A stretch of 64,000 bases of DNA, taken from the IMG/VR virus record IMGVR_UViG_3300043395_000420, positions 1 through 64,000 of that record. One strand, 5' to 3'. How positions within the stretch are numbered: position 1 is the first letter of the stretch; the number at the start of each line of letters is the position of its first letter. The notes beneath the pieces are model-generated. The model did not search any database and was not told where the DNA came from. It saw nothing but the letters and a program-made list of their open reading frames with translations. This DNA comes from a virus. Below, in pieces: positions 20,669 to 53,011 of the stretch. The position numbers and the translations under genes were made by a program.

Positions 20669-20805
20669 CCTTGACCTCTATACCGTTTCAAGTAGTTTTT
20701 ACTTGTTTTTAGTTTACTTGATTTCTTTTTAGCTACAACCCCAGGACGTCTTTTACGGGCGTTCTTGGGTGCGTAGTTATTCTTTGCAGTATTTACTCTA
20801 GCCAT
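20665..20805 (-). CDS. 46-aa very basic protein ending YRGQG (absent from ORF track)
   Basis: Translates MARVNTAKNNYAPKNARKRRPGVVAKKKSSKLKTSKNYLKRYRGQG*; TAATG-coupled to the upstream gene. Confidence 0.8.
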   Translation of the reverse strand: MARVNTAKNNYAPKNARKRRPGVVAKKKSSKLKTSKNYLKRYRGQG

Positions 20806-25139: not shown

Positions 25140-28100
25140 TTATCCTCCACCTTGCATGTTCCTAATACTTATAAAATTTTTAGTCGCAAGTATTGGATCT
25201 GTTTGTGTACCTGTAATACCAAAGAACTTAAATCCTGTATTAAGAAACTTAGGAGAACCTTCTTTTTGGAAACTATAGGGTCCGACATCTCTTACATAGT
25301 AAGCCTTGTCATCTCCTTGTGCTAAGTCAACTAGTTGTCCTAATAACTTAACAAGATTTCCCGCAGTTTGAGTAACAGCTAAACTCTTGAAAGTCAGCAT
25401 TTCAATATAGTTATTAAGACCTACTCCGGGTAAAGGTATCCAGTTCATTTGCTCTTGTCTAGTCTTTAACATAAGGGCTAACATACTATTTGACATATAA
25501 CCTCCTAGTTTAAAAGGGTGTTCTGGATCCTCAACTGTTTCAAATATGCCCATGTTCAGTGGCAATGCACCTGACTTCTTTCTGAGTTTTTCATACTTAT
25601 CTTCATCATCTGCATCAAATCCGAAGAGTAAAGCAATCATAAGACTCATACCTACTAGTATACCTGCTTCCATGATTACTTTAGCAAATGCTTGCTTTTG
25701 TTCTGGAAGAAGAGAAGAAAAAGACTTACCTCCTGTAGCAATACCTTCTTTTAATGCACGTATTGCTTCTATGTAATAACCAAGATATGAATCATTAAGA
25801 CCTACATCATATCTTGCTTTAGGATCAAGTAGGTTTCCACGGAATTGAAAACGGTTAAGTAACATACGTAAGAAGAATCTTTTTAAGAACATAATCTGTC
25901 TATAGAAAAAGAATCTATCTGCCTGAGAGTAGTCAAACTTACCAAATGCACCATTTACGTTATTAGATACAGCCTGTATTTTATTACGGTACATTTTAAA
26001 TTTAGATCCTCCTATACCCCATTCTGGATCAATACCTTCTCTTAATTGAATATTACCATCTTTAAGTTCCCATGCTTCTATGTATGGAATCATTTTCTTT
26101 TCTCCGTCAATAGTTATTTCTACTAACTGAGCATGCATCATAGCACCAAATAAACTTAAGTTGGCATTAAGTTCTGTCCATTTACGAGTATTAGTAAGAA
26201 GATTGGCTGGTTCTAGTAAATCTTTAGCAAAGGTTCTTGTTAGGTTTTCTCCTAGTTTTTCTTCAAATCTTCCGGATGTTGGATCAAATATTTCTGTGAG
26301 TTGTACATCCAATGACTTAGGTCCATACTTATATATCTGAAAAGATATTTCTGCCATAGTTTTGTTAGACCATATTGTACCCTTTGCGTAGTCCCTGTTA
26401 CTATAAAATCTTCCGGCTGCTCCTTCAATTACTGACTGTATTCTTGCACTTAAAGAGTTACGTACTGCAGACTCTATGTTTACAGCAAAGAATCCTAATG
26501 CAGATGTCTTCAGCATTGATGTAGCTATACTGTTTGCTAGTTTACTTTCAGAGAATATACCCGTATTATATTTACCTTCAAACTCTCGTTCTATAAATGC
26601 GTTAATTGCCTGGGCTCTAGTAGATAAACCTTTTTTGTTAAGGGGTTTTTCTATGGCTCTATTAATCATGTTTTTCTTTTGGTACTGATTAATAATATCT
26701 AGTTGTTCTGGGTCATTAACTAGATTTTGAAGAGTTCTTGCTACAGGACTCATCTCTCTCAACTTAGCATTACGTTCTAGAGAAAACATATATCTCATAG
26801 TACCCGTTAGTACATCTAATGAGGTGTCATCTAATGATAAGTAGTATTTACCTTGAATAGGTATTTTGTTTACTTGGTCATCAAACATATCTAACTTAGC
26901 ATATTCAATACGTTCTTGTGCATTGAATCCGCGTTCTTGGTCATCTGCTGTACGTTGAAAGAATTCTTTTACCTTTTGTGAAAATGTAGATATAGGATTT
27001 TGTTTTACTAAGTTACCGGCTTCGTCTATAAAGTCTTTATTTTGTACTGCTTCTAGGTTGGACATACGGAATCTTGGTATCTCTAAACCTAAACGTTCTT
27101 CGGGTGCTTTATCTTCTTGTAATTCTAAATGTAAATCTATTAGTTTCATTAATAGATTATATGTATTAACATCAGAATTCTTAAGTTTAAAGAACTCATT
27201 GTTTACATATGTGGTATCAGGAGTACCATCATCGTTACGTACATCAAGTTTTGGTAGCCAGTTGTAACCATCCCAGTTTGCTTTAGTAATATCTCCCATT
27301 GCTATGGCTTGACGGATACTAACTTTTTCTGTCATGTATCCTGCTGCAGGATCACGTTTAACTTGATATGTAAAGTATTTACTAGTTGGTATTCCGGGTA
27401 TTGTTCTCTTACTACCGTCAGGTTCTGTGATTACAGTAGACTCATACATGTTAGAATCGGCCGGTCTAGTTATATTCCATGCTGAGGTTCTAACATATCT
27501 AGGACTAGATAATCTAAACTGTTTACTATATACATCTTTTAAGATATGATTAGCATCAAACCATTCTCTGAATTCTTTAGAGTTTGCACGCATCATATCT
27601 ACAAATGCTGTATTCTCTAGTATAATGTCATCAATGTTTGTTGCATCAAATTCTCTAATGTTTAATGCCTGAAATGCTTGTTGAATATCATCTCCAAAAT
27701 AGTTATAGAAACTATTCATTATATCTAAGTAATCCGAGGTAGGTTCTGTTTTTTGTAACTCATCTAACTCTGTATACTTAGTAAGTATCTCTTCATTAAT
27801 TTTTGTTTCTTCTACAAGCAGTGCTTTGTCTAATGGATCAAGAGACTTATTACGTCTGTTTAATACTAGTTTTTCTAGTTCCTCAAGTCTATCTTGTTCA
27901 TCTATTGTAAGTTTTGCAGTAGTATCTCCTCTTCTATATTTTATTCTTTGTGTTACAAGTTCTTGATACTCTTTTTGTTCTATCTTAGTAAGACCTGTTC
28001 TTGTAATAGATTTTTCTTTTTCTTCAAGGATTTGCTCATCCAGTTTTTTAATTTCTGCAAGAACGTCTTCAGGCATTTCCAAACCTGATGTTTGATTATC

Positions 28101-30767
28101 TTTATCCTTATATCTGCCTAGTAATAGATTACGTTTATCATACAGATCTAATAACTTATCATTGCTTATGTCTACGGCAAGTCTTAGTAGTATTTCTTTT
28201 TGTCTTTCTTTTAGGGTAACAAGTTCTGCCATGATTGCAGCACGTCTTGTATAATACTCAGGTTTAATTCTAACCCTAGTATTATTTTTTAACCATTCGT
28301 CTACCTTAGAATCGTAAAGATTTGTACCTGGTTTAATATTATTATCAATTAACTGCTGTACAAATTTCTTATATGCACTTTGAAATACTCCGTTTAGAGG
28401 TATCTCATCATACATATCTTTTGTCTTGGCGTTGTATTCCTGTAGACGTAATGCTATTTCTTTTTCTTTACCTGTCTTTTTGTTACCGTTAGAATCTATC
28501 AATGAAGATAGTTCTTTCTTTTCTCTTTTATATTCTTTTAGTTCATCTAGTAAGTCTTGATTATCTTCATCCTTACTAATGATACGTTCTATGTCTCTTA
28601 TCTTAGTATTAATTGCCGTAAGTCTTTCACCGGCTTCTACACCAATAGCATCTTTTTCTAATAAGAACTGACGTTCGTAGTACTTATCTGTATACTCTGT
28701 ATGAAAATACTTACGTTCCCATTTAAGTTTATCCTGAATAAGTTGTCTTACTACAGAATAGTCTCCGGATTTTGCTGCTTCCTCTTTTGCTTTTTCTATT
28801 TCATAGTTCTTTTGATCTATGTCTTTTTTATAATTCATCCAAGGATTTGCATATGTATAAACCTGCCTTTCCTTGAACTCGTTGTTTTCTCTACCACCTA
28901 CTGTATCTCTAAATGTAACTCTTCTACCAAGTTCTCCAATATTAGTTGGATTAAATCCAGCAGCATCAAGAAATGGCTTAAGAGCAGTTGCATACTCATT
29001 GGCTCTTCTTTGTGCCTTAGTCTGCATGTCTATAAAGTTATTCTTTACGTATAAAGAAAACCCAAAGATTACGGGGTCTTGATTATTCATGTACCCTTCT
29101 AAGAAAGAATTAAGAGCATGAGCATCTCCGAGTTCTCCTTTAAGAAGAGACTCTATCTTTTCAGGAGATAGTTTTAGTTCTTCCCATTCTCTAGTACGTG
29201 CTTTAATTACTTGTTCTGGAGCACCTTTCCTAGTAAGATAGTCTATTGCTGCAGAATACTTAGCATCTATCGCTTCCTTGAGAGGGATAAGAGTATCATA
29301 AAGTATTTCGGAAACACCATCTGTATAAATACTATTTGTATGTACTTTACTTTGTACCATCCTACTACGAATCTTTGTGATAAGTTCGTATAAGGGACTG
29401 TCACTATCTATACCTGCTTTAGTAAATGTCTTCTCATATTCTTTAATAAGAGACTCCATAGTACTAAGTAATGAGTTAAGATAGAACGCAGTTTTTAAAC
29501 TGTCTTTGTTATTTACATCTTTAGATATTTCTCTTAGTTGGTCATTAATACGTTTAACCATAACATCCAACTGCTCTATACTATTAATAAACGCGAGCAT
29601 TTGTGCACGTTCATAGGTAGCATCCTGCATTGCTTGGTCTATACCGTTTTGGTAATCCTTTAGTAAAGATCTAATCTCATTAATATCTTTACGTTCATAT
29701 TCATTCTTAAGTTCCGACAGGGCCTCTCTAAACTCCCGGTCATTCTTCATCTTCTTAAGTATAGATTGTACACGGTCATATAAGCTACTAATAGAACTCT
29801 GTAGTTTACCTTCATTACGAAGAGTAATCAGGTCATTAATAAACTTATCATGGTCAGCCGCATATGCCGCAAAAGAGTCATCAGTTACAAGTTCTTTATT
29901 AAAGGTAAACTGGTTATTGGCCTCAAGCATCCGGGCTAATTCAAGTATAGAAGTAGATTCAGATAAGGAAGATATGTCAATACGTTTACCAAAGATCTTA
30001 CGTAGTGCTTGTTTAATAGCATATAATATTTTCTGTACTATGGATGAGAGATTGGGAGAAATATTTTGTTGTAGAGATTTTAGGTTGGCAATGTCAGTTA
30101 ACGTTTTTACTATCACCTCCTCTGCAAAGTATTCTGTCCCTTCTGCTAATGACGGATGAGATGCCTTGACATCTTCAATAATCTGTGGGTTGGTAGCAGA
30201 TATTTCAGCATATAGTTTATCAAACAAAGATTTATTTTCTTTTGCTAGGGCCCTTACTATAGGATGACAGAACTCATGGAATACTGTCTTAGCCGTTACA
30301 AAGTCATTTACTAGATATACTGTATCTCCTAGAAAGAATCCGGGTTTACCATTTCTATACTGGTTTTCCGGTGCTAGATTAGCAGTTATTGCTGCTGCTT
30401 CTTCTGCTGTAACCATTCTATACTGTATACCAAGGTTACGTTGTAATGCTTCTGCTATTTCTATTATTGCAGATCTAGATGACAGGTCTTTAAATACTTC
30501 TTTGTTTACTACAGGTTCTGCCATTACATGGTAGTCAGGTCTTCCGGCAACATATTGTCCGAAACCATCATACGTATCTGTAACTACTTGTTTATCAGAT
30601 AGTTCTAATGCATAACCTTGATCGTTTAGTACAGGTAAGAACTCTTCAGGGGTAGGTAAACTATCCATGTTACGTTCTTTAGCATAGCGTAATGCCTTGT
30701 CAGCAAGATGCTGTCCAAACTTTTCTTTTAACGCGTCAAATTCCGGGGTGTTTCTACTGCAAGCCAT
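25140..30767 (-). CDS. giant virion cargo/ejection protein with zincin domain (1875 aa)
   Basis: HEFCH..EE zincin motif, long helical body, C-terminal TM-like segment; third gene of the crAss-like giant-protein trio. Confidence 0.8.
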   Translation of the reverse strand: MACSRNTPEFDALKEKFGQHLADKALRYAKERNMDSLPTPEEFLPVLNDQGYALELSDKQVVTDTYDGFGQYVAGRPDYHVMAEPVVNKEVFKDLSSRSAIIEIAEALQRNLGIQYRMVTAEEAAAITANLAPENQYRNGKPGFFLGDTVYLVNDFVTAKTVFHEFCHPIVRALAKENKSLFDKLYAEISATNPQIIEDVKASHPSLAEGTEYFAEEVIVKTLTDIANLKSLQQNISPNLSSIVQKILYAIKQALRKIFGKRIDISSLSESTSILELARMLEANNQFTFNKELVTDDSFAAYAADHDKFINDLITLRNEGKLQSSISSLYDRVQSILKKMKNDREFREALSELKNEYERKDINEIRSLLKDYQNGIDQAMQDATYERAQMLAFINSIEQLDVMVKRINDQLREISKDVNNKDSLKTAFYLNSLLSTMESLIKEYEKTFTKAGIDSDSPLYELITKIRSRMVQSKVHTNSIYTDGVSEILYDTLIPLKEAIDAKYSAAIDYLTRKGAPEQVIKARTREWEELKLSPEKIESLLKGELGDAHALNSFLEGYMNNQDPVIFGFSLYVKNNFIDMQTKAQRRANEYATALKPFLDAAGFNPTNIGELGRRVTFRDTVGGRENNEFKERQVYTYANPWMNYKKDIDQKNYEIEKAKEEAAKSGDYSVVRQLIQDKLKWERKYFHTEYTDKYYERQFLLEKDAIGVEAGERLTAINTKIRDIERIISKDEDNQDLLDELKEYKREKKELSSLIDSNGNKKTGKEKEIALRLQEYNAKTKDMYDEIPLNGVFQSAYKKFVQQLIDNNIKPGTNLYDSKVDEWLKNNTRVRIKPEYYTRRAAIMAELVTLKERQKEILLRLAVDISNDKLLDLYDKRNLLLGRYKDKDNQTSGLEMPEDVLAEIKKLDEQILEEKEKSITRTGLTKIEQKEYQELVTQRIKYRRGDTTAKLTIDEQDRLEELEKLVLNRRNKSLDPLDKALLVEETKINEEILTKYTELDELQKTEPTSDYLDIMNSFYNYFGDDIQQAFQALNIREFDATNIDDIILENTAFVDMMRANSKEFREWFDANHILKDVYSKQFRLSSPRYVRTSAWNITRPADSNMYESTVITEPDGSKRTIPGIPTSKYFTYQVKRDPAAGYMTEKVSIRQAIAMGDITKANWDGYNWLPKLDVRNDDGTPDTTYVNNEFFKLKNSDVNTYNLLMKLIDLHLELQEDKAPEERLGLEIPRFRMSNLEAVQNKDFIDEAGNLVKQNPISTFSQKVKEFFQRTADDQERGFNAQERIEYAKLDMFDDQVNKIPIQGKYYLSLDDTSLDVLTGTMRYMFSLERNAKLREMSPVARTLQNLVNDPEQLDIINQYQKKNMINRAIEKPLNKKGLSTRAQAINAFIEREFEGKYNTGIFSESKLANSIATSMLKTSALGFFAVNIESAVRNSLSARIQSVIEGAAGRFYSNRDYAKGTIWSNKTMAEISFQIYKYGPKSLDVQLTEIFDPTSGRFEEKLGENLTRTFAKDLLEPANLLTNTRKWTELNANLSLFGAMMHAQLVEITIDGEKKMIPYIEAWELKDGNIQLREGIDPEWGIGGSKFKMYRNKIQAVSNNVNGAFGKFDYSQADRFFFYRQIMFLKRFFLRMLLNRFQFRGNLLDPKARYDVGLNDSYLGYYIEAIRALKEGIATGGKSFSSLLPEQKQAFAKVIMEAGILVGMSLMIALLFGFDADDEDKYEKLRKKSGALPLNMGIFETVEDPEHPFKLGGYMSNSMLALMLKTRQEQMNWIPLPGVGLNNYIEMLTFKSLAVTQTAGNLVKLLGQLVDLAQGDDKAYYVRDVGPYSFQKEGSPKFLNTGFKFFGITGTQTDPILATKNFISIRNMQGGG

Positions 30768-33700
30768 TATATACTACAACTTAAAATATCATTTAATATG
30801 TCATTAGTTACTTCGGTGTCTGATACTACCTGGTCTCTTTGAACTTTTTCCGACATCTCTACAGAACCTTTAGCAAATACTCGTGGTAAAGAATTAGGAT
30901 TTATATAACCAAATGCATCATACAGCCTCTCAGACAAATATACGAAAGTTTTAGGTGCGGATTGTGGATTTGCCGGTACATTTTCTTCAACAGAACCTAT
31001 AACCATTCCATTTTCTTCCCATCTATTAATCATAGACTGACCCATACCTCTAAAATTAAATCTTAATACTTTGTCAGGATTAAGTTTCATTTTTTCTACT
31101 AGGGCCTGAATAGCAGCATCTATCTGTTGAATGTTATAGTTATACTCTTCTTCAGTTTCTTCTACTAGTAAACCTGAAGGTGTAATAGTATTAGTTGTTT
31201 TATTCAATGTTCCCTTTGGTTTTCCTGTTTTAGGATCTACGGGTATTGCTAAGAACTTAGTAGGTATTCCAAAATAGTTATCTGGTCCTAGACCTGCTAA
31301 AACGGCTGATGTTTTATTTAGATCTGTAGTATTAGCAGTACGGCCAGGTTTTGCCATTACGGTATCAGTTACAAATATTACATTAGGATTAGCCTCTTTA
31401 ATCTTTTGAATATCAACAGGTTTAAGATTATCAGGAGTTAATGTAAAATCATATACAGGTATGCCGGTTCCGTTTTGTAAACCTACCATGAACCCATTAG
31501 GATTAGATGCTTGTGTAGGTTGAGTAATAGTAGACTTTGATACTATTTGCTGGTTAGTACTTACAGAAATTTGAGTAGGTTTAGACCAAGTACCAATAAC
31601 TTGTCCATCTACTGTAATTTCAGAGTAATTATATCCAGCTTGTTTCATAGCATCATATAATCTTTTTTCTCCTGTGTTATAGTCACTAGCGTCAGTATAG
31701 GCTTTGTTATCTGTAAGAATAGTAGCACCTGCTTCAACAGCCTTAATAGCTTCAGCTATTGTTCTATCTTGTTGAGTTTTTTGCTGTTCTTCAGTACCTC
31801 TTTTACCACCAATAGATACAAAAATTACATCATTAACTGAATAGTTACCTGTATTAGCAAAATTACCAGCTTGTTCTCTATATAAATCTGTAGAACTGCC
31901 CTTTATACCTTCTCCAAATCCTATATATTGTGTAGCTATGCTGGCTTTAATAACTGCTTTTTTATCAGCAGCTTGTATAGGTTTTACCGTAAATATATTT
32001 TTCTTAGTAAATTTATCACCTGTACTTACAGGAGCTTGTGATTGAGATGGTTGTACTACTTCAAATTCTATAGCATAAGGATAATTACCCACATGTCTAT
32101 CTGTAACAGATTTAACCCAACCTTCTTTTTGCCAAGTAGCATCTTGATACTCTTGTGTAAAAGGAGATACTTTAGTAATTCTAGTATAAACTTGTCTACC
32201 TGTATTATCAGTCATCCGGATAACTTTACCAACTAAGTCTTCAATTTTAGAAAGATTATAGTCTTTCATCATTCTAGAAACATCAGTCTTAGCTCTAGTA
32301 GTTCTAGTTCTATCTCCAGAAATAATAAGATCCATGGTAGATTTATCTTTAAACTGTGGTTGCATAGTTCTTGTTTTCCACACATCTCCTTCTTTATATT
32401 TAGAACCATCGGCAAAATTTTGTTCAATAGCTGGTAAACTATCAGCTACAATAAACTCATTACTTACAGGTTCTTGTGCAGGTTCTTCACCAACAATTTC
32501 TGGAGTACCTAATTTTTGACTAGTAGCAATATAGACCATATCAGTTGCTCTAGATACAGCCACATATTTTAATTCTTGCTGTACGTTTTTGTCTTTGAAA
32601 CTGTTAATAGTATCATCTAATATCAATACTTTAGTATAAGTACCTCCTTGAGATTTGTGAATAGTATGAGCATACCCGTAGTCAAAAGTTTGATTAAATA
32701 AAGTTTTACCATTTTGAATAACAGGTTTCATTGAAGTTATGGCATTTTCATAGTCAGATGCTTTTTGAAAATATGATGCTGCAGCACGAATATCTCCATC
32801 TTTTTTTAACCTAGCCCCTGCTTCTCTTAAATCTTTAATAGTTTTTGATAATCTTATTAGTTTAGAATCATCATCATTAACATCTGCTACAAATATTACT
32901 TCTGGTTTTTCATCGGCTTTTCCTAATAGATTTTGAATAGTTACCTTATAACCTTTAAATTCAACTTTATCACCCAATAAATCTAAAGTTACAGTAGAAG
33001 GTTTTATATCTAATACTTCATAGTCACCACTATTCATTATTTTATACTGACCTGTTCTATAATTTTTATCAAAGTTACTTCTTCCCATTATCAGGTCTCC
33101 GACAACAAGTTGCTGTTGAGCAGCATCTCCAAAAAGTAATTTTCTAACTTCTTTATTTTTAGCAGTTACTACAGCATTAGTAGCAGATAAAATTCTAAAG
33201 TATAACTTATTTTTTGCAAACTCTGGACTTAAGAAGTTTTCTTTAACAGCTTCGTTTACAAATGTATTGTTATCACCATAAACTACTCCTATACCATTAA
33301 CTACTTTTGTTTTATAGTTAAGTTCTTTACCATTACGCAAATTAGTAGACTCTTCTAAAATAGGGTTGTCTCCTGTTCTTTCTACCTTAGTTAATTGCAA
33401 CTGGGTTCCTTTATCAAAAACTTTTGATAGGTTATCTTGTCCTACAGGTCTTAACTGTGCAGGATCTCCCATGTATATAATTTTAAGATTAGAATTTTTC
33501 TTTTTTTCTTCTTGAATAAAAGCAAATAAACCATCAGCAACCATTGATGCTTCGTCTAGTATAAGCACGGTAGACTCGTCTGGTTTTAATACACCTTTAT
33601 TTTGTTTAGCAAAGTTTAGTTTTGCAAGATCATACTCTTCTTCAAAATTAAAATCAGGATTTAAACCAAACAATGAATGTAATGTATACACTCTTACATC

Positions 33701-42700: not shown

Positions 42701-44026
42701 CTCGTTATTTACTATAGCATCTGCTATTAAATCTCTAGCATTTGTTGTTGTACTGTCTACAGTTTTACCATCTATCTTAATAGAAAGTTCTTCTCCTTTC
42801 TTCATTAATACTATACGACCACTTCCTACAGGTAAAAAGTAAAAGAAGTTTGCTTTATCACTTTCTTTTAGAGTAACCGTCTGTTCCTTTTTTTGATATG
42901 ATATAGGATTAAGAAGAAAATCCGCCATTTCCAGTGCCTCCTCCATAGTAATGCTGTCCATATATATTTGGACATCTTTATTCATAGATGGAGAACTGAT
43001 GTATATAGAATTATCAGGGCCCTTTTTTAAATTTAGATTTGGGTATATTGTTTTAGATAAATCCGTTAATCTTGTTTTATCTGCAGCCATTGTTAAGAAA
43101 CCAACGTCACCGTTAGTTATCTCATTGATAATGATGTTATTAGCAGGATCTCTTGCAATAGAACTTGTCATTTTGTCTACTGTTTCTTTCTGCTTACGTT
43201 TTTCTTCTGTATTTGGATTTTGTACAGTTTCTAACTTGGTTCTTACATAAAAGTATACAGGCTTACCATTTGTTTCAACATATTCACCATTACTATTAAA
43301 CTCTAAAGGATTTCCTTGAGCATCTGTAAGTACCTGTATATAAATTTGATCTAAGTATCTTAGTAGTTCAGGATTATCTTCTATATCTGCAAGTTGTCTG
43401 CTGTCTAATTTATCTAGTGGAATTCTGCTTAATGCCATTGTTGTAAGATATACCTTTCCAGAATATCCTTTAATGGTCATATTAGCAGCCATCATGTTTC
43501 TGATAATTGTATAAAACATTTCTACAGAAAAGTTTTCTTCTTGTCCTGTAGTAGTAAACATGCTGTCTGGAACAGGATAGTCTACTTGTTTTATCAATTG
43601 TGAGTTTACTTTAGCATTAACATCATCTTCTGCTTGCTGGTTTCCGGCAATAGTTGCTGCTTCTTGCAGGTCAGTTTTAGTTATAGTTTCAACACTGATA
43701 TATTTGGCAACAGTGTTTAGATCTGGATTAGTTCTCCATTCTTTTGCTAACTTGTTATTACCATTAAGATCAAAATTAGTATCCGTCATATAATCAGATA
43801 CGGCAACATATCCTGCAGCCTGTCTAATCATATCGGGTACTAGATGGGCATATGACAATGCCTTATCTTTATCTTTAGACTTTTCTAAAACATAGTCATA
43901 CAATTCTTTAGCAATTGCTTGAGGATCAATGTTTTGTTTTTTGTTTTTTACATCTTCTATAGATTCTCTAACAAATCTATATACGGATGCTAAGGATTCA
44001 TTACTGTCTATTGCGCAAAAAGCCAT
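30767..44026 (-). CDS. virion RNA polymerase (two-barrel, crAss-like) polyprotein, 4419 aa
   Basis: RIP.QG..S and GADFDIDK catalytic motif (37190-37204), DAQG, KQALG..A; two HExxH zincins; fused SF1 helicase and further C-terminal domains. Confidence 0.9.
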   Translation of the reverse strand: MAFCAIDSNESLASVYRFVRESIEDVKNKKQNIDPQAIAKELYDYVLEKSKDKDKALSYAHLVPDMIRQAAGYVAVSDYMTDTNFDLNGNNKLAKEWRTNPDLNTVAKYISVETITKTDLQEAATIAGNQQAEDDVNAKVNSQLIKQVDYPVPDSMFTTTGQEENFSVEMFYTIIRNMMAANMTIKGYSGKVYLTTMALSRIPLDKLDSRQLADIEDNPELLRYLDQIYIQVLTDAQGNPLEFNSNGEYVETNGKPVYFYVRTKLETVQNPNTEEKRKQKETVDKMTSSIARDPANNIIINEITNGDVGFLTMAADKTRLTDLSKTIYPNLNLKKGPDNSIYISSPSMNKDVQIYMDSITMEEALEMADFLLNPISYQKKEQTVTLKESDKANFFYFLPVGSGRIVLMKKGEELSIKIDGKTVDSTTTNARDLIADAIVNNEGGGLYLYKNNMTTVRTFSNVRQNADGTYTAKIDTIPYGEFIRQHAYVANKVENGDFVPMNAYLEFMPGTVTKKEITKSTQENYKGVPIIEKAITSKTGEPGGAQYNSTNNTIYVNKPVLKSKFESKAWTTPRIQKDGSSANAFPEDMFKTYEEWESFVIEHEYQHSQLSRTEFDKSVSGTTTTADYENEINKRALESLGMKIPEVKPETKTQSASNTIKKNNLIDDSLLLRAGRKPSTAKSSQDVINAALPWYNSIRLADGRMLSDVVPISVMFDAVNTDPSVVAHWNLAGITLWQGADASDLYHEAWHAFSQIFLTAKQREDLYNAVGQMKGSFENYNGKTVEFKNATKLEKEEWLAEQFREHMLRGGKGKYSKSKGIIAEIFSKIFELLQYLFSNTTIRETQADYTANAKVAEMFEKLAVGKLGEPVFEPDAVFIETGLNKIKNRSLSDTAVIMKSMNGLMSESIDDLNDEYNTKGLTIGIISEASMRKAAYLKVQEKLVNHIESLKEKYEKAAEKRKIKIKSRIDLATWMLDNFGDPMNPKEGETILSYYEKNYIQSFEPDMADKDDNTTSRSEYADKSGNEVSINNMIDKKLSYTLSTLIAYNDNGEVEKNDLGFPKMVPARTAQNLLINITQGARNPKEIYDKLKEVEELFPIVKAFLKKVGNPDNIKGELENSMWGQINKLFTLPRINVVNLDIEQTKDSKGNISYITIRPGNASRESSKVFKLFNSRFTRSGETEPYRVKASDTGAVSINIEQLTSDLYMSTSVISKDPITFLKAIGLYMPELSVVKNALSSKENGNLYEINGLKNKVRAINAFNTWLKLNRPGAEPIKLTRVTDLLDKSFDKLVQDKSLREAFLKQESQYKESTFQPFTGFKTTLGNLYLQWTGDFSNSTITTTTGKTKYENSLPNTITRKTDSINNAINYEDLVRDNTENVNGMPIYIMNNLSLNRNPWMQNSMLMNILFDMSTPEKIKRQGVTATGKVLNARINILDMDGTKMRIGEQIDLVGLKSSDSDMTTKMLQDFYMMMIYGTSEATRHAGKSSTFLYQIIHADGSKHYVNPKMFASKDPTSSTGKSKVLAAYMGYLSSEVERIHKAKTDPDAKNIVLYEKKGKPVTLAEVGSKFIMFDDILTEDQKTEIYNLIDKGTITTAADFKNLLNTNEKFANTYQNQVNSYLENQYQQVIDKFKKEGIFDSRYLLSPNILKIVGDTKEYTREELSRQLIEAYTANQLLHNIETGLVYYGDPGIYNHSKEEYHKRNAGIGSTGETPRTDIHFQNYVNKPAKKGKYAESAWYTGPKTKADGTTVGQRDYNGTFNTAVLADVVSTSVYIDEYKKAAKDKERKRLAKTNASQDTINKAMQNIDNIFDDAYAGMKEGDAQGWISFDAYRLMMRGLDKWTTLHEKLYVRILNGDDVSAEDIANFFPIKKMQYWGTLATTGLPVEAFHKFSLMPLIPTVVKGTKLEQLHNKMVEQDIDYAVFASGSKLATVTNDGNFDKFYANKEGWLALNEPEFTFSKNVIYLDYLKDQVEVAPEFKEKIIFSTQLRKLVEEGSFENGVPVDFKPEITDLTERYDAWNAIKDESVKKSESKLYTKILRYESALKQLTEFKKKQLVEELGWTDKGPKDLTKFIDFIEKQLTRQEISDNELEFIDALKSAPMVNLDLSNFSSQIEKLLTAVVNKRLIRQKVTGEALIQASSAGFEKAGKFRNATEEERRKYSGTNDLKFYTPGNGMEVKISIQGHFKKLLSLPEVTRKAKAENISKLDALNSIIRDEKWLSKNRDMITMVGVRIPVQGLNSMEVMHVAEFLPEEAGNMIIPATEIVAKSGADFDIDKLSIQMPVLRWEGLKGNSKLTIANVRGEAALKELYQNLKSKAIEVEEFKVINSTVDELGNLVYDKDVVRRALTRDVSPTVKRFSTDIEQSNKLLNTILTAALGEEWFDMGYTESEIIEILKNYNLATSEEAFIKKMDNEAAYENQLLLATKDLILDPENFVSLITPNSTTIVKPISEKLRDKTRVYSSKKRFNGEPNGFSPTRIYEPLYNLAKLEYNSVGKQALGIGAVDNTFNVVFNRIGAYMSDVKVINEAGDLMRNVLLLPHNTMNVNGEQRISLSHSYDKNNFYKISDLFNQLINGWVDVEKDEWIFDLQGNKELTPVLLFLIQTGVPINQAVLFLSQPIIREYITDARSRKGTFSSVLGKESELNQHNTDARDSILFGENSKYGFGLNEESFYPDNSKNYRYNAINGKVRVAKNKLYDYFRIALTNLDENYFNEKALEDNLDNLNDDKTKDVYTDFDRNVFLHFMEILEMSKGLTEIKQATKFDTTRSSSLHDARVQLRKDIKASQFKGLDPDVYESIIKNSPIGSFKIQEFMIGLYEPFFPLSNSTSINSYFAKPNIESYISGMRMGETRVNVTFDKASVIDNFKKQLSPYIFYNWYFTLPSNKHYRSYVLNSELDVATVPYARRAAIYKDGKIYVDQNSIAENLYNKFYSNELQYLDADVAPLPANVFTGVNEADMYKKYLYERESLRALPNYKYSVVALSAEYMKIEKELSEKYLDKTLLRKGESTTINKETVKLWAYETYLRNHALNNINLPYWIFTGNNSYAYQYDQIVSNPAFKKITEYYDLLSALEVDVFSSMASSYSSYVKANVNTLRFRDTLLEIDQKNLYSENLNELKNPSILQDKFGISAIDAENISKFFNRFDVVAYLQSGSNPNSTFSILSIADSKVISELLAEPVSKFIDTVTQLEAVPNSNNKLTELLFDQYRKIFIGTNSQAKSNIAKRFRTFYDPNFANVVLSSKKDAVIKEFVDILEKTGYKFETEEESIFELFEETPTSFEDDYKYFGAMYKIKVENGVGVDVLNYKGKKSAKEKLLAAYNNNPNIDPQNKQPFRQPKSSQISPNQSQPANTMTFSDGVTISTPFKLNDQQTEALLELEKFYKNPAAYDNQITLKGYAGTGKTSIMKIFDAYLQRVSLDSIIYTSPTNRANAVTKLKNPDVRVYTLHSLFGLNPDFNFEEEYDLAKLNFAKQNKGVLKPDESTVLILDEASMVADGLFAFIQEEKKKNSNLKIIYMGDPAQLRPVGQDNLSKVFDKGTQLQLTKVERTGDNPILEESTNLRNGKELNYKTKVVNGIGVVYGDNNTFVNEAVKENFLSPEFAKNKLYFRILSATNAVVTAKNKEVRKLLFGDAAQQQLVVGDLIMGRSNFDKNYRTGQYKIMNSGDYEVLDIKPSTVTLDLLGDKVEFKGYKVTIQNLLGKADEKPEVIFVADVNDDDSKLIRLSKTIKDLREAGARLKKDGDIRAAASYFQKASDYENAITSMKPVIQNGKTLFNQTFDYGYAHTIHKSQGGTYTKVLILDDTINSFKDKNVQQELKYVAVSRATDMVYIATSQKLGTPEIVGEEPAQEPVSNEFIVADSLPAIEQNFADGSKYKEGDVWKTRTMQPQFKDKSTMDLIISGDRTRTTRAKTDVSRMMKDYNLSKIEDLVGKVIRMTDNTGRQVYTRITKVSPFTQEYQDATWQKEGWVKSVTDRHVGNYPYAIEFEVVQPSQSQAPVSTGDKFTKKNIFTVKPIQAADKKAVIKASIATQYIGFGEGIKGSSTDLYREQAGNFANTGNYSVNDVIFVSIGGKRGTEEQQKTQQDRTIAEAIKAVEAGATILTDNKAYTDASDYNTGEKRLYDAMKQAGYNYSEITVDGQVIGTWSKPTQISVSTNQQIVSKSTITQPTQASNPNGFMVGLQNGTGIPVYDFTLTPDNLKPVDIQKIKEANPNVIFVTDTVMAKPGRTANTTDLNKTSAVLAGLGPDNYFGIPTKFLAIPVDPKTGKPKGTLNKTTNTITPSGLLVEETEEEYNYNIQQIDAAIQALVEKMKLNPDKVLRFNFRGMGQSMINRWEENGMVIGSVEENVPANPQSAPKTFVYLSERLYDAFGYINPNSLPRVFAKGSVEMSEKVQRDQVVSDTEVTNDILNDILSCSI

Positions 44027-44036
44027 TGTATTATAA

Positions 44037-47000
44037 TTAGCAAATGTTAATGTTATTCTTTGCGGAGTTTTTATCTCCGTTAACTTCTTTTTCTATTTGG
44101 TTTTTAGTTTCTTCAGTAAGTTCTGCTATACTTGCAGATATATTTTCTGCGGCCTGTTTTTGTGCTTCAGGGTCTGATACAGCACCAGGCATAGCTAGGT
44201 CTCCTGTTTGACTATATACACCTATAATAGTTTTGTCAAATACATTTTTAGTCATTGGTGCACCTGTTCCTTTCATACCTATTTTTTTATAATATAATTT
44301 AGACTTGTACATACCGGTAACATATAGTAGTTCACCGGTATTCGTTACTAAGATATGGCCTTTTTTTACATCTACAAAATTAGGAGTAGAAGAAACTTGT
44401 TCTAATTTTTCTTGTAGTTTTTTCTCTGCTTCTAATCTACTGACTCCTATGAAGTTATAGTCATCATCAGTAAATAAACTAAGTTCATACATCATATCTT
44501 TGACCGCAGTCATAGAGTCTAAACTGTCAATTTGCTCTAGCAAAGGTTTGCTTGTAAGGTTTAGAGTAGTTCCTTGTGGAGAAACGTTTCCTTCTAGTAC
44601 ATCTAATACATTATCTGTATCTACTGTAGCATATTTTTTATCTTTTCTTGCTAACAACTCATAGGATCTTCTGTTTTGTACAATGTCTGGATCAGACTCA
44701 GTTCTAAAATATACAGAAGTATCTTTAGGCACTATTACTAAATCTATTTTACCAATGTATAAAGGTGATAAATAGTTTTGTGAACTTGTAACAACAGTGT
44801 ATCCTTTATTTGCTTCTCTTCGCATTGCATCTAAGGCAGCACCATATGCTGATTGTATTGCATCACGTTGAGCATTTCCTGCAGGATCATTTGCCAAGGA
44901 GTCAAAGAATTCTTTAACTTTTTGATACATGTTTTCTTTAGTAACATCTTGAAATAACTCTATACCAGAATTTTTAAATGCTTCTACTATAAAGTCATCT
45001 CCAGATATTATGGCAGCATCTGTATCAAATGCTGTTTGCGTATCCATACCGGAACTTACATATACAATACTTCCTTTGAACATATCCAAAACTTTTGAAT
45101 CTGGATTAACATCAGGTATACTAGTTTGTACCGGTGCTTGTTCTTCTTCTGTAAAGTTCCACTCATTACTATTTAATAAAGCCGTAAATACAGTCTCTGC
45201 ATTTTTAATAGGTGTAACTACTGGTGTAAGAGTTCCTTGTTGATTAACTTCTTCTGCTGAAACTATCTTACCCTCTTCAACTTTAAATACAATAGATCTA
45301 GACATTGATGGTCCGTTACCTTTCCAATTTGCTGTAACTTCACCATTTGTAATAGTAATTTCAAATGCTGGAGTTGTAACAGGTACAAGTTTAGGAGCAT
45401 TGGTAACTTTCATACCAGATCCTTGATAATTATCTATAACATCATACTGCGTTACATCAATATTCTCATCCTGTTCTACAAAACGATATCCTGTAGGAGG
45501 TATGACAACATTATCCGGTTTAGTTCTATTTGTCAGAATTATATCTCTAGCTTCTTCAGGAGTCATTGCGTTAATATCATCAGGACTATACTTTAATCTT
45601 CTTAATGTATTTTTCTCCTTTGGTGTCAAAGGATTAGGTCCTGTCATAGTACCTGCTGCTGGAGTAGGTTGTGCAGCACTTGCTACTGAAGCATTATAGT
45701 CAGATATTATTTTAGCAGAATATGAACTAGTTTTAACCCATTCTTCAAAATCATCTTCTTCTCCATTATATGCAGATCTTAACTGATTTTTTAATTCAGT
45801 TGGCATTGCATTATAAGGTGTATTTACTGTAATCTCTTGATCTGTTTTAGCAATAGTTTCTTTAAAATATACTCCAGAAGGTTCTAACTTATTGGAAGCC
45901 AATGCAATAGTCTCATCTAAAATAGTATTTTCATTACTTACACCTAATATACTACGAAGTACTTGCCTAACTGCCTCAACAAAGTCTTCCCATAAAGTAG
46001 TTGTTTTCTTTTCAGTTTTTACTAATTCAAGTAGTTGCTGAAATGCAGGATTAGTCAATGCTTCTGTAACAAAAGATTCTATACTATCTACAGGCATCAT
46101 AGCACCTTCTAATCCTAAACTCTTTAGACTATTATCAAGATTACCATTATCTAATGCATTTTTAAATTCTGCTATAAGATTATTAATGGCTGTATTAAAC
46201 TCTGCATTAGTACTACTTTCTGATATCATCATTGTAGTAATACCATTAATTAAAGAATACTCAAAGTTAACATTACCTCCTTGATATTCGAACGTAGAGT
46301 ATCTAGGATCTATAATTAATCCGTTAACAGGATCATATGTATTATAGTTTGTATGATCTAGTTTAATAGTTGCTTTTCTATCTCCTACTAATGGTCTTAG
46401 TCTTTGTGCTAATTTTTTAGCAACTATACTGCTTTCAGAAGAGTTAATAATAAAATCTAATAGTTTCTTTAACTCTACTTCTCCACCGGTCTTTGGGTCA
46501 AACCCTAGTTCTTTTGCTAGGTCTGCTATAGTTCTATTATCGTTAGTATCTCTTCTAGGACTAAACTTACCCATTGGTACATTAGCACCTGTAATGGGTT
46601 TATTGGTTGCAGTCTTTCCGGTTAACTGTTCTAACTTATCTACTAACTCTATTATCTTTTGATATCTTTCATCATTAGGTAATATTTGTTTAAGGGTAGT
46701 TGCATCATAAAAAGAATCTGGAATTCTATTTTTATCTACTAAAGCATCTACATCTTTAGGATCAAAAAATACATTCATGTTCTGTAACTCATTGATAAAC
46801 ATATTATTAATATGCATCTCCATGAATTTTTCAGACATTTCTTTTACTTTAGCCTTTGCAATTTTTTGAGATTCTTCAATAGCCGTTTTAATACGTTGAC
46901 TCATTGTAGCAAAGTACTCAGGATCTATTAATCTGTTTACAAACTCTGCAGCAGATCTTGCATCACTATCTAAATCATAGTAATCTAAAATAGCAGCAAA

Positions 47001-49826
47001 TGCCTGTTGCAACTGATCTTCGTCTATAATATCATTGTTAGATTCTGCTAATACTTTTATATAATCTTGGAAACTCTTATATGCCATTGCACGAGACTCT
47101 TCCACATTTCTTGTTTGTGGAGCACCCTCTTCATCTAATTCTTCATCAGTAAAAAGAGGTTCACCTACTAGTGCTACTTTTTCTTTGGCTAATGTTTTTT
47201 GTTTTCTCTTACCAGTCTTGCTATCTATAAACTCTAAGGTTACTTTACCATCTCGTACCCTTTTAACTTTACCTTTAACTCGTTTTCCACCCTTACCTTC
47301 AAATTCTACAGCAGCGCCTTTTACAAAGGTTTTTCTCTCCTGACGCATTCTTTGTTCTTCTTCAGGATTTAATGCTGCTTTCTTTGCAGCAACCATATCA
47401 CTGATATGTAAGAATAATCCGGAACTTAAATCTTTAAGAGTATCATATTGCTTTTGGAGATTTGCTGCCTTTTTTTGTTGAGTAGCATCTCCTTGACTAT
47501 ATATTTTAATTTCTGTATCTAGTCTCTTTAGTTCTTGTTGTATAAGATCTTCACTTACAAGAGATGTTAGTTTACCAGCTTCTATTTTACCTAATGGTTT
47601 TAATACATTTAATAAATCAGTTACTTTCTGAATACCGTCTACAGCTCTTTCAAAACTGTAATTATTATATATAGCATACTTTACGGCTTCTTCATGGGCT
47701 AACCAATCATAGAATTCTGTATTCTTATTATAAGTATTAGGTAGTCTTTCTTTGTAATAATCATACCTGTCTTTAATAGTTTCTGCTTTTTTAATTGCGG
47801 AATCTATCCTGCCACGAATATCTTTATTATAATTATTTTGAGTAGTATTAGTAGAATCATTATCACCGAATGCTTCTACTAATTCATCATCTGTCATATT
47901 CTGCATATCCTTCATCGCATCTATAAAGAAATCAACCTTGCCACTGCGTATTAAAGTATGTATATGATTAAACATTGAATCATCTAAAGTACCATTATAA
48001 TCTTTCTTATCTCCTCTTGCTTCAGCATCTGCAGCAATCTGTACTAGGTTATTTTGCAATGCCATATTTTGTGCCATAGCACTTGCATACTTTTCAGGAT
48101 TATTAGCAATATGGGTCATTGCTTTTTCTAGTTCTACTCTTGCTTTTTCTCTTGCATCATCTGCATCTTTTAGAGTAGTTTGACCTGTAAAGTAATCTGA
48201 AGTCTTTGCTAAAAACCTACTACCTTTTGTAAATATTACATTTTGAGCAGGTCCTAAAAAACCTCCCATAGCAAAACCAGAAAGGAATACCTCAAGACCC
48301 ATGTCATTTTTATCTAGTTCTTCAGAACCCATAGCTAGAGTATTGAGTATATCTGCCTCAATTACTCTACCGTTACCAAAATAACTATCTGTATATTGTT
48401 TAATTAATCCTGCAGATAATGATTCTTGATAAAGTTCTTGAGTACCTTCCATTAGGTTTGCGGATGTATATCTTAAAGCATTACCTGCAATTCTACTTGG
48501 AGTCATACCCTTACCTACTGCTTTCCAGTAAGCACCTTTATCTAAACCAAATACACCTTTAATATGCGTACCCCATTTTTGTTTATCTAAAACAGTCACA
48601 ACCTTTTGACCACCTTTTTTACTAATAGACTCCATAAAACCTAGAGCACTATCTTCCATAATATTTCTAAAAGGTTTAAATCCTTTTAAGGCTGTTTCTA
48701 ATACAATTTTATTTGATACATATATACCAGCAAGGTTTGCCATGAAAGTTTTACCGGCTGCTTCTGTTGCACTAGCAGAAATCTTATTTAACTCTTGAGT
48801 ATTAGGAACACGTTTATATAGTTCGTAATGTTTATCAATTAACTTATTAGTTACTTCATTTTGAACCATACCGGCTTCTAGTTTAGCTTCTGAACTAACC
48901 AGATTTATTGCACGTAAGTCTTTTATGAATGCACCTGCTGTACGTGTAGCCAGGGCAAGTTTAGATAAATCTTTATATCCTTCTAAACCTCTGTTTACAC
49001 CTCTATATAACGTAGTAAGATTTTCAGCAGGATTAATAAAGTTCATAGAAGCATTCCATAGTTTACGTGCTCCTGATATAGTTTCTCCTGCTTTTACAGA
49101 ATTATATAATCCTTTTGTTAAACGTGCTAAGTTTTTAGCACTTCTTATTGCTAAAAGTTCTGAGGCACCTCCGCCTGTAAGAGCTGTTGCAGCAAATAAA
49201 CCTAATTCTTCTAAACCGATCTCTCCTAATAAACCTACAGTATATGCAGAGTTTAAATAAAAGTTTGTAAATCCTGCGCCAAATCCTTTTTTAGAACTAG
49301 AACCAATAGCCATTGCTTTTTCCATCTCCCATGCAGATTCTCTATCTGCAGCAGCCGATGATAAAGATCCCCAGTTTTTAAATACACTGGTAAAACCTGT
49401 TCCTAATAATGTTGGATATTGTTTACTTGCTCTTACAAAGTCTTGTCCCCATGTAGAATTATTATTATAAATCTTTTCATTATCTCTAAAAGGACTGAAG
49501 CCTAACTTATTAAAGTTGCCATGTGAATAGTATCTATCAAAATTTAAACCTGTATGTGTTGCATCTATACTAACACCTTTTGCAGAATATAAAGGATCTT
49601 TCTTAGTATTAAGTAACGCATCATTAAGACGAGCATTAGTTGCTTTTAAAAGAGCGTCTGCTGATGAATAACTAGTTTTATTAAGAGGGCCTGTAGTAGG
49701 ATTACCTACATTCATTACACGGTTGTCTATTACAGCACCTGCCTTATTAGGTATATCTATACCTTTTGCTTTTAATACTTGCTGGTTAAAATTTTGTTCA
49801 GCAGCTTCATCTCTTAAAAAATCCAT
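44037..49826 (-). CDS. giant virion cargo/ejection protein (1929 aa)
   Basis: Gly/Ala-rich hydrophobic helices, EG.QE..Q motif, decayed zincin; first gene of the trio. Confidence 0.8.
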   Translation of the reverse strand: MDFLRDEAAEQNFNQQVLKAKGIDIPNKAGAVIDNRVMNVGNPTTGPLNKTSYSSADALLKATNARLNDALLNTKKDPLYSAKGVSIDATHTGLNFDRYYSHGNFNKLGFSPFRDNEKIYNNNSTWGQDFVRASKQYPTLLGTGFTSVFKNWGSLSSAAADRESAWEMEKAMAIGSSSKKGFGAGFTNFYLNSAYTVGLLGEIGLEELGLFAATALTGGGASELLAIRSAKNLARLTKGLYNSVKAGETISGARKLWNASMNFINPAENLTTLYRGVNRGLEGYKDLSKLALATRTAGAFIKDLRAINLVSSEAKLEAGMVQNEVTNKLIDKHYELYKRVPNTQELNKISASATEAAGKTFMANLAGIYVSNKIVLETALKGFKPFRNIMEDSALGFMESISKKGGQKVVTVLDKQKWGTHIKGVFGLDKGAYWKAVGKGMTPSRIAGNALRYTSANLMEGTQELYQESLSAGLIKQYTDSYFGNGRVIEADILNTLAMGSEELDKNDMGLEVFLSGFAMGGFLGPAQNVIFTKGSRFLAKTSDYFTGQTTLKDADDAREKARVELEKAMTHIANNPEKYASAMAQNMALQNNLVQIAADAEARGDKKDYNGTLDDSMFNHIHTLIRSGKVDFFIDAMKDMQNMTDDELVEAFGDNDSTNTTQNNYNKDIRGRIDSAIKKAETIKDRYDYYKERLPNTYNKNTEFYDWLAHEEAVKYAIYNNYSFERAVDGIQKVTDLLNVLKPLGKIEAGKLTSLVSEDLIQQELKRLDTEIKIYSQGDATQQKKAANLQKQYDTLKDLSSGLFLHISDMVAAKKAALNPEEEQRMRQERKTFVKGAAVEFEGKGGKRVKGKVKRVRDGKVTLEFIDSKTGKRKQKTLAKEKVALVGEPLFTDEELDEEGAPQTRNVEESRAMAYKSFQDYIKVLAESNNDIIDEDQLQQAFAAILDYYDLDSDARSAAEFVNRLIDPEYFATMSQRIKTAIEESQKIAKAKVKEMSEKFMEMHINNMFINELQNMNVFFDPKDVDALVDKNRIPDSFYDATTLKQILPNDERYQKIIELVDKLEQLTGKTATNKPITGANVPMGKFSPRRDTNDNRTIADLAKELGFDPKTGGEVELKKLLDFIINSSESSIVAKKLAQRLRPLVGDRKATIKLDHTNYNTYDPVNGLIIDPRYSTFEYQGGNVNFEYSLINGITTMMISESSTNAEFNTAINNLIAEFKNALDNGNLDNSLKSLGLEGAMMPVDSIESFVTEALTNPAFQQLLELVKTEKKTTTLWEDFVEAVRQVLRSILGVSNENTILDETIALASNKLEPSGVYFKETIAKTDQEITVNTPYNAMPTELKNQLRSAYNGEEDDFEEWVKTSSYSAKIISDYNASVASAAQPTPAAGTMTGPNPLTPKEKNTLRRLKYSPDDINAMTPEEARDIILTNRTKPDNVVIPPTGYRFVEQDENIDVTQYDVIDNYQGSGMKVTNAPKLVPVTTPAFEITITNGEVTANWKGNGPSMSRSIVFKVEEGKIVSAEEVNQQGTLTPVVTPIKNAETVFTALLNSNEWNFTEEEQAPVQTSIPDVNPDSKVLDMFKGSIVYVSSGMDTQTAFDTDAAIISGDDFIVEAFKNSGIELFQDVTKENMYQKVKEFFDSLANDPAGNAQRDAIQSAYGAALDAMRREANKGYTVVTSSQNYLSPLYIGKIDLVIVPKDTSVYFRTESDPDIVQNRRSYELLARKDKKYATVDTDNVLDVLEGNVSPQGTTLNLTSKPLLEQIDSLDSMTAVKDMMYELSLFTDDDYNFIGVSRLEAEKKLQEKLEQVSSTPNFVDVKKGHILVTNTGELLYVTGMYKSKLYYKKIGMKGTGAPMTKNVFDKTIIGVYSQTGDLAMPGAVSDPEAQKQAAENISASIAELTEETKNQIEKEVNGDKNSAKNNINIC

Positions 49827-52800: not shown

Positions 52801-53011
52801 TTCTGGTAAAGTAATCATCTCGAGCATCTGTAGTATCTTGTCTGGTAAGTCTTGAATTAAGAAGACTGCCATACAAACTACTTATCTTATTATATCCTGC
52901 CTGATACTGTGCTTGTTTTGCTTCAAGTAGATTTTGGTAAAAATTAAAATCCGGCTGAAACGGTTGTATCTGCGGAATGTAGTCTGTTGAACCTTGTAGA
53001 TATGTTGCCAT
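49829..53011 (-). CDS. virion cargo protein (1060 aa)
   Basis: MATY.QG..DYIP..QP..PD N-terminus, helical/coiled-coil; position typical of crAss-like cargo genes. Confidence 0.7.
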   Translation of the reverse strand: MATYLQGSTDYIPQIQPFQPDFNFYQNLLEAKQAQYQAGYNKISSLYGSLLNSRLTRQDTTDARDDYFTRIQNDIEKYSGMDLSKIENVNNALQVFQPLLDDKYLQRDIVFSRAMDVQRGRSNYFKNCMDEKECGGRWWDVGDSALSYLEQDFMKASKDDIFNIQNPEYVPYTNAYKTAMDTIYKYKDMFNMEYPSLTKDGRYKMITTNGEQLIPTLESYLSMTIGKDPQIRRMYDTQSYVDRKSYVASKAAEVGEEAAEREYINSVFTAADEYNKSLQQSLTQDLKDVEDKKTIKKSNAATYGVDPDTDGDIMEQLFGLDEQKKVIEQAKTDADNVTGMTDPSVNEGVSLDVLRRRADYLKSELYNAETIGKAARDYAMGTKKVKTEADPYAMADYNHRLRIAEMDYEDKLTRKRNADEEKMMRELMGSNGNGRPIPDGKGNTDPNKMADEILQEKISQIQQGIGEVSTATFQSIFESLNHLHQNGNAAQKQYAAKKIEELFGVGEFKQEQIGNYEENLRQDWDELDANAKAEFGNSFENYVQGISPGAGAFDYSRNKLGSFGRRAWDWLQAGPEAVYDWAVGDENPYKTVTIKGGYVTKDANGNYVFNPNQDKRNDFNDPSNYKSTMERIKAFRNSKDFNDLYYSAASEMGTAYDRLITSYEQGQKIENQYNEARKYNLNYIVDNLKADDWRFGLLINPDNGWQVTKEEFVKRYQEAYMNDLQTYPTQKVGRIGPYDVSKFRMDVMKSDAEEVYENLTETLWKANKDGRYNKYLRTDVNPMGGTSGQTSTGMSYNVDPMLGASSNENLLAINAIQTDVMRALEYPYDMNAIFVPGSGADIMKENLEDISEESQFAAKQAMAQLVDAFMNSSKKDSKGKADRAAFKMQAFNIAANDGNKVAITFIPNTGYLNANSGKKNKTAWDDLLGSADENPNPTGAVTMIFDKSAANSQMFNQFKLTTDEAALNLTGSIMIGNPNSRFGYYEIKQDINGNRVLYDNTKVYKDGEYVLANPGGYYGSELYPQLGPGGDLSTLRSALDQNILMLAQYDDQQVNARRKK

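Follow-up and report, generated by a model that had tools for sequence, protein, structure and literature searches.

Crassviruses are more abundant in the human gut than any other phages, and they pose the question of how podoviruses move megadalton protein cargo through a narrow tail, and in which order and stoichiometry. The gene block described here lies in the IMG/VR virus record IMGVR_UViG_3300043395_000420, of which positions 1 to 64,000 were analyzed; this whole stretch of 64,000 nucleotides (nt) is referred to as the window, and the full record is 93 kb and 78% complete. The block, at positions 25140–49826, was found from the list of open reading frames (ORFs) and their translation to consist of three consecutive minus-strand ORFs, designated A, B, and C. 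An earlier note on this DNA had proposed that cysteines (Cys) at the facing ends of these three giant proteins couple them head to tail. The present analysis indicated that consecutive cargo proteins are probably joined head to tail through these facing Cys, most likely by a disulfide in the virion, as judged from sequence comparison and from a precedent in another phage.

Terminal cysteines of proteins A, B, and C

Gene A (44037..49826, minus strand) encoded a putative cargo protein of 1929 amino acids (aa), the first link of the proposed chain; its sole Cys was the last residue, with the codon (TGC, 44040..44042, minus strand) directly before the stop. Gene B (30767..44026, minus strand), the middle link, encoded 4419 aa with a crAss-type virion RNA polymerase (RNAP) and a Dda-like SF1 helicase, and contained only Cys4 (TGC, 44015..44017, minus strand) and Cys4417 (TGT, 30776..30778, minus strand), the third residue from its end. 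Gene C (25140..30767, minus strand), the last link, encoded 1875 aa with Cys3 (TGC, 30759..30761, minus strand) and Cys167, and its start overlapped the stop of B by one base (TAATG). The N-terminus of A and the C-terminus of C had no Cys. Translation and codon positions agreed exactly with the residues and coordinates in the earlier note, and confirmed that 4 of the 5 Cys stand at junction-facing ends and none at the outer ends.

Proteins A, B, and C together contained 5 Cys in 8223 aa (0.06%), far below the 0.85% of control ORFs from related loci. For five uniformly placed Cys, the probability of four falling in the 16 junction-facing terminal positions was about 7e-11. At the 0.85% background, 0.14 Cys would be expected in those 16 positions, and the probability of at least four was about 1e-5.

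Region aa 1813–2326 of B matched the crAss-like RNAP of phi14:2 (PDB 6vr4, E 1.8e-21). The catalytic DFDxD motif was located at B aa 2275–2279 (37190..37204, minus strand) and corresponded to the invariant D526, F527, D528, and D530 of an alignment of the RNAP core (A1, the first row of which begins at B aa 1750). These two results identified B as a two-barrel RNAP with DFDxD. A profile of the A N-domain, which had the N-terminal 750 aa of window A among its seeds, joined window A with phi14:2 g067 and crAss001 gp47. The HExxH region of window C (aa 94–283) was linked by BLAST to the C protein of cr118_1 (E 8e-11), and window C was linked also to the C part of the fused proteins of crAssphage LMMB and locus L049. 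The C proteins of cr118_1, phi14:2 (g065), and crAss001 (gp49) matched one another, and the fused LMMB and L049 C parts matched g065 and gp49. The giant genes on both sides of B were thus homologous to g067/g065 of phi14:2 and gp47/gp49 of crAss001. The best explanation is that A, B, and C form a crAss-type virion cargo block of an RNAP-associated protein, the RNAP, and a zincin-bearing protein. Phi14:2 g067-g066-g065 and crAss001 gp47-gp50-gp49 have been found in virions by mass spectrometry; A, B, and C of this uncultured phage are presumably also packed in the virion and ejected.

Pairing of terminal cysteines in related phages

When the block was searched by megablast, and the terminal 600 aa of B and of C by tblastn, against 50,697 phage records, no match was obtained; a pattern scan with the N-terminus of B gave no relative, and a search for the B N-terminus in the relatives' own records gave none. 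Relatives were reached through C, through the RNAP core, and by walking along contigs. The survey was seeded with 80 IMG/VR loci obtained with the RNAP-core alignment, to which the window, phi14:2, and FpV4 were added; once the B sequences had been clustered at 70% identity, 64 representatives remained. A junction was counted wherever two ORFs of 250 aa or more followed each other on the same strand, and Cys was scored in the last 10 residues of the upstream protein and the first 8 residues of the downstream protein.

In the IMG/VR contigs G001 and G002 (23–37% identity), the sole Cys of A was the penultimate residue, B started with MNIC or MNVC and ended in Cys, and C started with MFC (Cys3). 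In phi14:2, g067 had Cys as its last residue only, g066 had Cys3 and Cys2179 of 2180 residues, and g065 had Cys3 only. In crAss001, gp47 had only Cys2339 of 2341 residues, gp50 had Cys5, Cys1334, and Cys2404 of 2412 residues, and gp49 had only Cys5.

Out of the 134 junctions in the 64 representatives, 106 had Cys on both sides, 26 on neither side, 2 on the N-terminal side only, and 0 on the C-terminal side only (Fisher p 1e-25, phylogeny not corrected for). The earlier expectation that a C-terminal Cys is accompanied by an N-terminal Cys in the next protein was thus upheld. Junctions without Cys lay outside the chain in 25 of 26 cases, and the other was a frameshift inside B of L079. The two N-only cases were L072, where the Cys of A stood 19 residues from the end, and the orphan Cys5 of a 598-aa FpV4 protein.

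The 169 chain proteins (377,345 aa) contained 236 Cys, of which 214 were terminal, and Cys made up 0.0058% of their internal positions. None of 37 outer C-termini of the chain and none of 14 true outer N-termini carried Cys; in control ORFs, each kind of end bore a Cys in 11% of cases. Two proteins that had seemed to bear Cys at an outer N-terminus were rejected as artefacts: in L019 the A fragment lying upstream is cut short but still has its Cys, and in L072 the upstream A is the one with the displaced Cys. The rule of paired terminal Cys can be used to delimit which neighbouring genes belong to the chain.

In alignments of the last 250 aa of B (A2) and of the first 300 aa of C (A3), each with 55 rows and 11% mean column identity, the only invariant column was the terminal Cys (window Cys4417 and Cys3, respectively). 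The terminal Cys also stood out as the sole column with at least 80% conservation in two alignments of 43 homologues each, one covering the last 200 aa of A (42/43; window Cys1929) and the other the first 200 aa of B (40/43; window Cys4). The N-terminal Cys stood at position 3, 4, 5, or 6, after 2–5 residues, and the C-terminal Cys was followed by 0–9 residues (0–4 in 101 of 106 cases).

Both TGT and TGC were in use as terminal Cys codons, so that selection acts on the Cys residue. The paired junctions had a median intergenic gap of 3 nt, and 23 of the 106 overlapped, a spacing that fits coupled, equimolar synthesis. In crAss001 and cr116_1, gene A lay on the opposite strand, far from the start of B, and the terminal-Cys pattern was kept; the rule therefore belongs to the proteins and not to the gene junction. 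The pattern holds in every crassvirus family sampled and in FpV4. It was kept in the annotated frames of the Suoliviridae records L092, L093, L094, L096, and L097. The annotated cargo genes of these five records contained 4–78 in-frame stops under translation table 11, which implies stop-codon recoding in late genes.

Natural fusions of the three genes were informative. Where A and B were present in one ORF, Cys was absent from the N-terminus and from the internal junction, and the C-terminal Cys and Cys3 of the next protein were kept. The A+B fusions of L047, L061, and L073 had one Cys each in 4065–4686 aa, at the C-terminus, and the A+B protein of FpV4 had the sole Cys4286. Homology to A was demonstrated for L047, L061, L073, L049, cr118_1, and cr108_1; L050, L074, FpV4, and several Suoliviridae were classed as A+B by length and context rather than by homology, and the A N-domain profile misses some fusions that BLAST detects. 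In the Intestiviridae (crAssphage LMMB and cr11_1), B and C were fused, the zincin was found on the A-like protein, and there was one Cys pair, at the sole remaining boundary. L049 encoded a 5002-aa A+B+C fusion with two internal Cys, none of them terminal or at the junctions. An A+B fusion thus lacked exactly the C-terminal Cys of A and the N-terminal Cys of B while the other two stayed, and a B+C fusion showed the converse; the loss of the pair upon gene fusion, which the earlier note had anticipated, was seen in all three kinds of fusion.

Splits and inserts showed the reverse change. In L016, where B is split, and in L060, where C is split, a new Cys pair was present at the new boundary, and the unsplit L039 and L042 had no Cys there. 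In L033 and L083, an extra protein between B and C bore both an N-terminal and a C-terminal Cys. On the FastTree phylogeny of the RNAP core, in which deep nodes were weak, there were no fewer than 6 changes of the A|B state and 2 of the B|C state. The independent contrasts (4 on supported branches, 6 in all) were all concordant; when the B|C events were included together with the splits and inserts (four), the tally was about 10 concordant and 0 discordant events. Since only head-to-tail pairing explains this pattern of fusions, splits, and inserts without re-pairing, such pairing of the facing Cys is strongly supported by the sequences compared. The best explanation for the pattern is that a Cys pair is interchangeable with a peptide bond in evolution.

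Some gene breaks carried no Cys pair. A Cys-free break in B of L079 (L079:10700-11200), between ORFs of 2181 aa and 1226 aa, was rejected as a protein boundary; the frames overlap, and the break appears to be a frameshift, due to sequencing error or programmed. In cr108_1 (L010:21380-21671), the RNAP gene was interrupted inside the GSDFDID catalytic motif. In cr116_1 (L098:18579-19420) and cr131_1 (L094:19137-19932), the break in the RNAP gene held an ORF of 215–242 aa. There was no Cys pair at these three breaks, and a lone Cys ending the first cr116_1 piece may be read-through into the insert; the sequences fit introns rather than protein boundaries. For annotation, a boundary with a Cys pair in the cargo block can be taken as a true protein boundary, and a break without a pair as an intron or frameshift, as in cr108_1 and L079.

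Nature of the proposed link between cargo proteins

The cargo proteins are purged of Cys, as are the ejected proteins of other phage families. In the proposed mechanism, one covalent inter-protein link would join the C-terminus of A to the N-terminus of B, and another the C-terminus of B to the N-terminus of C, each through its facing Cys pair. The disulfide would form in the assembled particle and turn A, B, and C into a single 'pseudo-polyprotein' of about 0.9 MDa. The chain could serve 1:1:1 packaging, the stability of the pre-ejection core, or passage of the proteins through the tail one after another, with the link then reduced in the host cytoplasm. Threading might be ordered and release reductive; with a disulfide as the link, RNAP release would be tied to entry into the reducing cytoplasm.

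The disulfide is the probable chemistry by analogy. Cryo-electron microscopy (cryo-EM) of the pre-ejectosome of the cyanopodophage A4 showed that Cys1715 of gp27 is disulfide-bonded to Cys5 of gp26 in the virion (PNAS 2025, PMC12002296). In the record of Anabaena phage A-4L, gp27 (1717 aa) has Cys1715 as its sole Cys, and gp26 (1114 aa) has Cys5 as its sole Cys. As in A4, the upstream protein of the window has Cys near its C-terminus and the product of the next gene has Cys near its N-terminus. Inter-subunit disulfides are present in the tail and portal vertex of crAss001 virions (PMC10172136). The part of the earlier proposal that concerns the pairing of A, B, and C head to tail was strongly backed by the comparative data, and the part that concerns the link itself and its purpose stays a prediction from sequence. 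A rule that predicts which protein ends are joined provides a map for choosing peptides, residues, and cryo-EM regions.

A more far-reaching version can be put forward tentatively and is rather doubtful at present: the injected proteins of Crassvirales, including the virion RNAP, might form one redox-cleavable thread of about 1 MDa that passes the tail link by link. The short overhangs at the terminal Cys (0–4 residues after the C-terminal Cys at 101/106 junctions, 2–5 before the N-terminal Cys) would let the chain pass the tail channel, and it would then be severed into its active parts in the host cytoplasm. Over evolutionary time, a disulfide would be able to replace a peptide bond and vice versa. 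If true, this would, together with A4, amount to a general building principle of podophage ejection machines.

Several points weigh against a disulfide-linked chain. Particles assemble in a reducing cytoplasm, and the habitat of gut phages is anoxic. In the phage's own record (78% complete), no gene for a thiol oxidase (Erv1/ALR), thioredoxin, or glutaredoxin was found, the Erv1 search being without a positive control. The link has been seen in no crassvirus, by biochemistry or structure, and the crAss001 atlas did not resolve gp47, gp49, and gp50 (PMC10172136). Orphan terminal Cys also occurred: an 861-aa protein of crAssphage LMMB (L008:5660-8245), outside the chain, had the sole Cys860, and the cr11_1 protein in the same place had no terminal Cys; the 598-aa protein of FpV4 (L091:6192-7988), outside the RNAP chain, had the sole Cys5. 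The displaced Cys of L072 A departs from the rule. The contrasts per single junction were few (4–6), with a sign test p of 0.125 when taken alone. A4 gp27 and gp26 had no BLAST similarity to A, B, and C (best E 0.095, no consistent match), so that this precedent is an analogy and not a homology.

The comparative data show pairing and not chemistry, and the facing Cys could instead share a metal ion (Zn, Cu(I), or Fe), possibly at a site built from at least two chain copies in the manner of the Rad50 zinc hook. Such a bridge could form in the reducing cytoplasm where the particle is assembled, and C has a zinc-protease-like domain. It is nevertheless unlikely: each terminus has one conserved Cys with no conserved His, Asp, or second Cys adjoining, the residue profiles around the Cys are weak, and A4, the only phage with such a signature for which the link has been solved, has a disulfide there.

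Somewhat less probable again is that each terminal Cys bonds a non-neighbour (the same Cys of a second copy, the portal, the capsid, or other cargo), the concordance reflecting a shared requirement of termini. The orphan terminal Cys in the cargo-region proteins of LMMB and FpV4 would suit this explanation. It does not account for the concordance at the junctions (106 both, 0 C-only) or for the bare outer ends (0/37 and 0/14). Nor does it account for the fusions, where A+B removes just the C-terminal Cys of A and the N-terminal Cys of B and B+C does the converse, or for the inserted proteins, which always have Cys at both ends.

The HExxH motif of the zincin-like domain of C raised another explanation. 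The motif HEFCH (C aa 164–168; 30264..30278, minus strand) holds Cys167, the one Cys of the block away from a junction. In most relatives the aligned motif was HEF[S/A]H, and HEFCH was found only in the window, L002, and L003; Cys167 is a lineage-specific S/A-to-C replacement in the aligned sequences, outside the terminal-Cys rule. The AlphaFold2 model of the C N-terminal domain had a pLDDT (predicted local distance difference test) of 78, and a Foldseek search of this model against the PDB gave no significant match, the best E being 0.14 and the matches mostly zinc proteases. A terminal Cys of B or C might cap the zinc of the C zincin as a cysteine switch and keep it latent until ejection, as the pro-domains of matrix metalloproteinases do. 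The nearness of HEFCH to the C N-terminus and the weak fold matches are in line with such a switch. It is very improbable, as the rule also applies at the A|B junction, where there is no zincin; Cys3 is invariant, yet HExxH was found in the first 300 aa of only 28 of the 55 C homologues, so that the Cys is not tied to the presence of HExxH; and in the Intestiviridae the zincin is in the A-like protein and the Cys pair is still simply at the gene boundary.

The comparative data refuted three remaining explanations: chance, selection that is relaxed at disordered termini, and a nucleotide signal for translational coupling that happens to encode Cys, which the tight packing or overlap of the junction genes might suggest. 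The pattern persists with A on the opposite strand in crAss001 and cr116_1, TGT and TGC are both used, control ORF ends have Cys in only 11% of cases, and the Cys is invariant as a residue although its position shifts (3–6 from the start, 0–9 residues from the end). Head-to-tail joining of the cargo proteins by a disulfide stays the preferred reading.

Neighbouring features and known systems

The helicase domain of B (aa 3281–3836; 32519..34186, minus strand) matched PHROG 325 (E 4.6e-82), the Pfam families AAA_30 and UvrD_C_2, and PDB 3upu. The helicase region was also matched by BLAST in the giant B-containing proteins of cr118_1 and L049, and an injected helicase may travel with the polymerase.

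The four large upstream ORFs were also Cys-poor and had no Cys at their termini. In the 1060-aa ORF upstream of A (49829-53011, minus strand), the only Cys were a C-x5-C pair, Cys128 and Cys134. Similar-looking proteins of G001 and G002 had a close Cys pair at 128/134 and 127/133. The upstream cargo-region proteins crAss001 gp45 (390/398) and phi14:2 g069 (369/378) also had one close Cys pair only and resemble the 1060-aa ORF in this pattern. The close pair of the 1060-aa ORF could form a disulfide within this further Cys-poor cargo protein or bind a metal at a small site. At about 20300–20800 of the window, the GC and AT skew flipped sign and the genes turned from plus to minus strand, marking the border of two divergent gene blocks.

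In the crassvirus literature, no paper was found that mentions these Cys, the terminal-Cys rule, or a link between cargo proteins. Among the closest known systems are the homologous proteins g067-g066-g065 of phi14:2 (RNAP PDB 6VR4) and gp47-gp50-gp49 of crAss001, which have the same terminal-Cys pattern as the window; B of the window differs from these cultured-crassvirus counterparts in being twice as long and in having a helicase.

The ejection proteins of Schitoviridae (N4 gp50, DEV gp71-gp73) are strongly Cys-depleted, which has been explained by passage through the oxidising periplasm; the same source states that N4 virion RNAP has no Cys, as the earlier note had said (PMC11445570). Whereas the Schitoviridae proteins have essentially no Cys, the crassvirus block retained fixed terminal Cys despite the depletion.

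The resemblance to A4 lies in how the link would work and not in family membership. Unlike the window block, A4 has one link rather than a chain and no RNAP. Its disulfide was described as one structural detail, stabilising a pentameric ring, and no rule that follows the fusion and fission of genes was drawn from it (PMC12002296).

Fused polyprotein forms of the crAss RNAP block were noted previously, and cleavage was proposed (Drobysheva et al., bioRxiv 10.1101/2020.03.07.982082). These forms, found in L049, Suoliviridae, and Intestiviridae, have the same domains in one polypeptide. In contrast to the proposed cleavage of the polyprotein, the Cys pattern suggests that it is the physically joined state that may be conserved, through either a peptide bond or a Cys pair.

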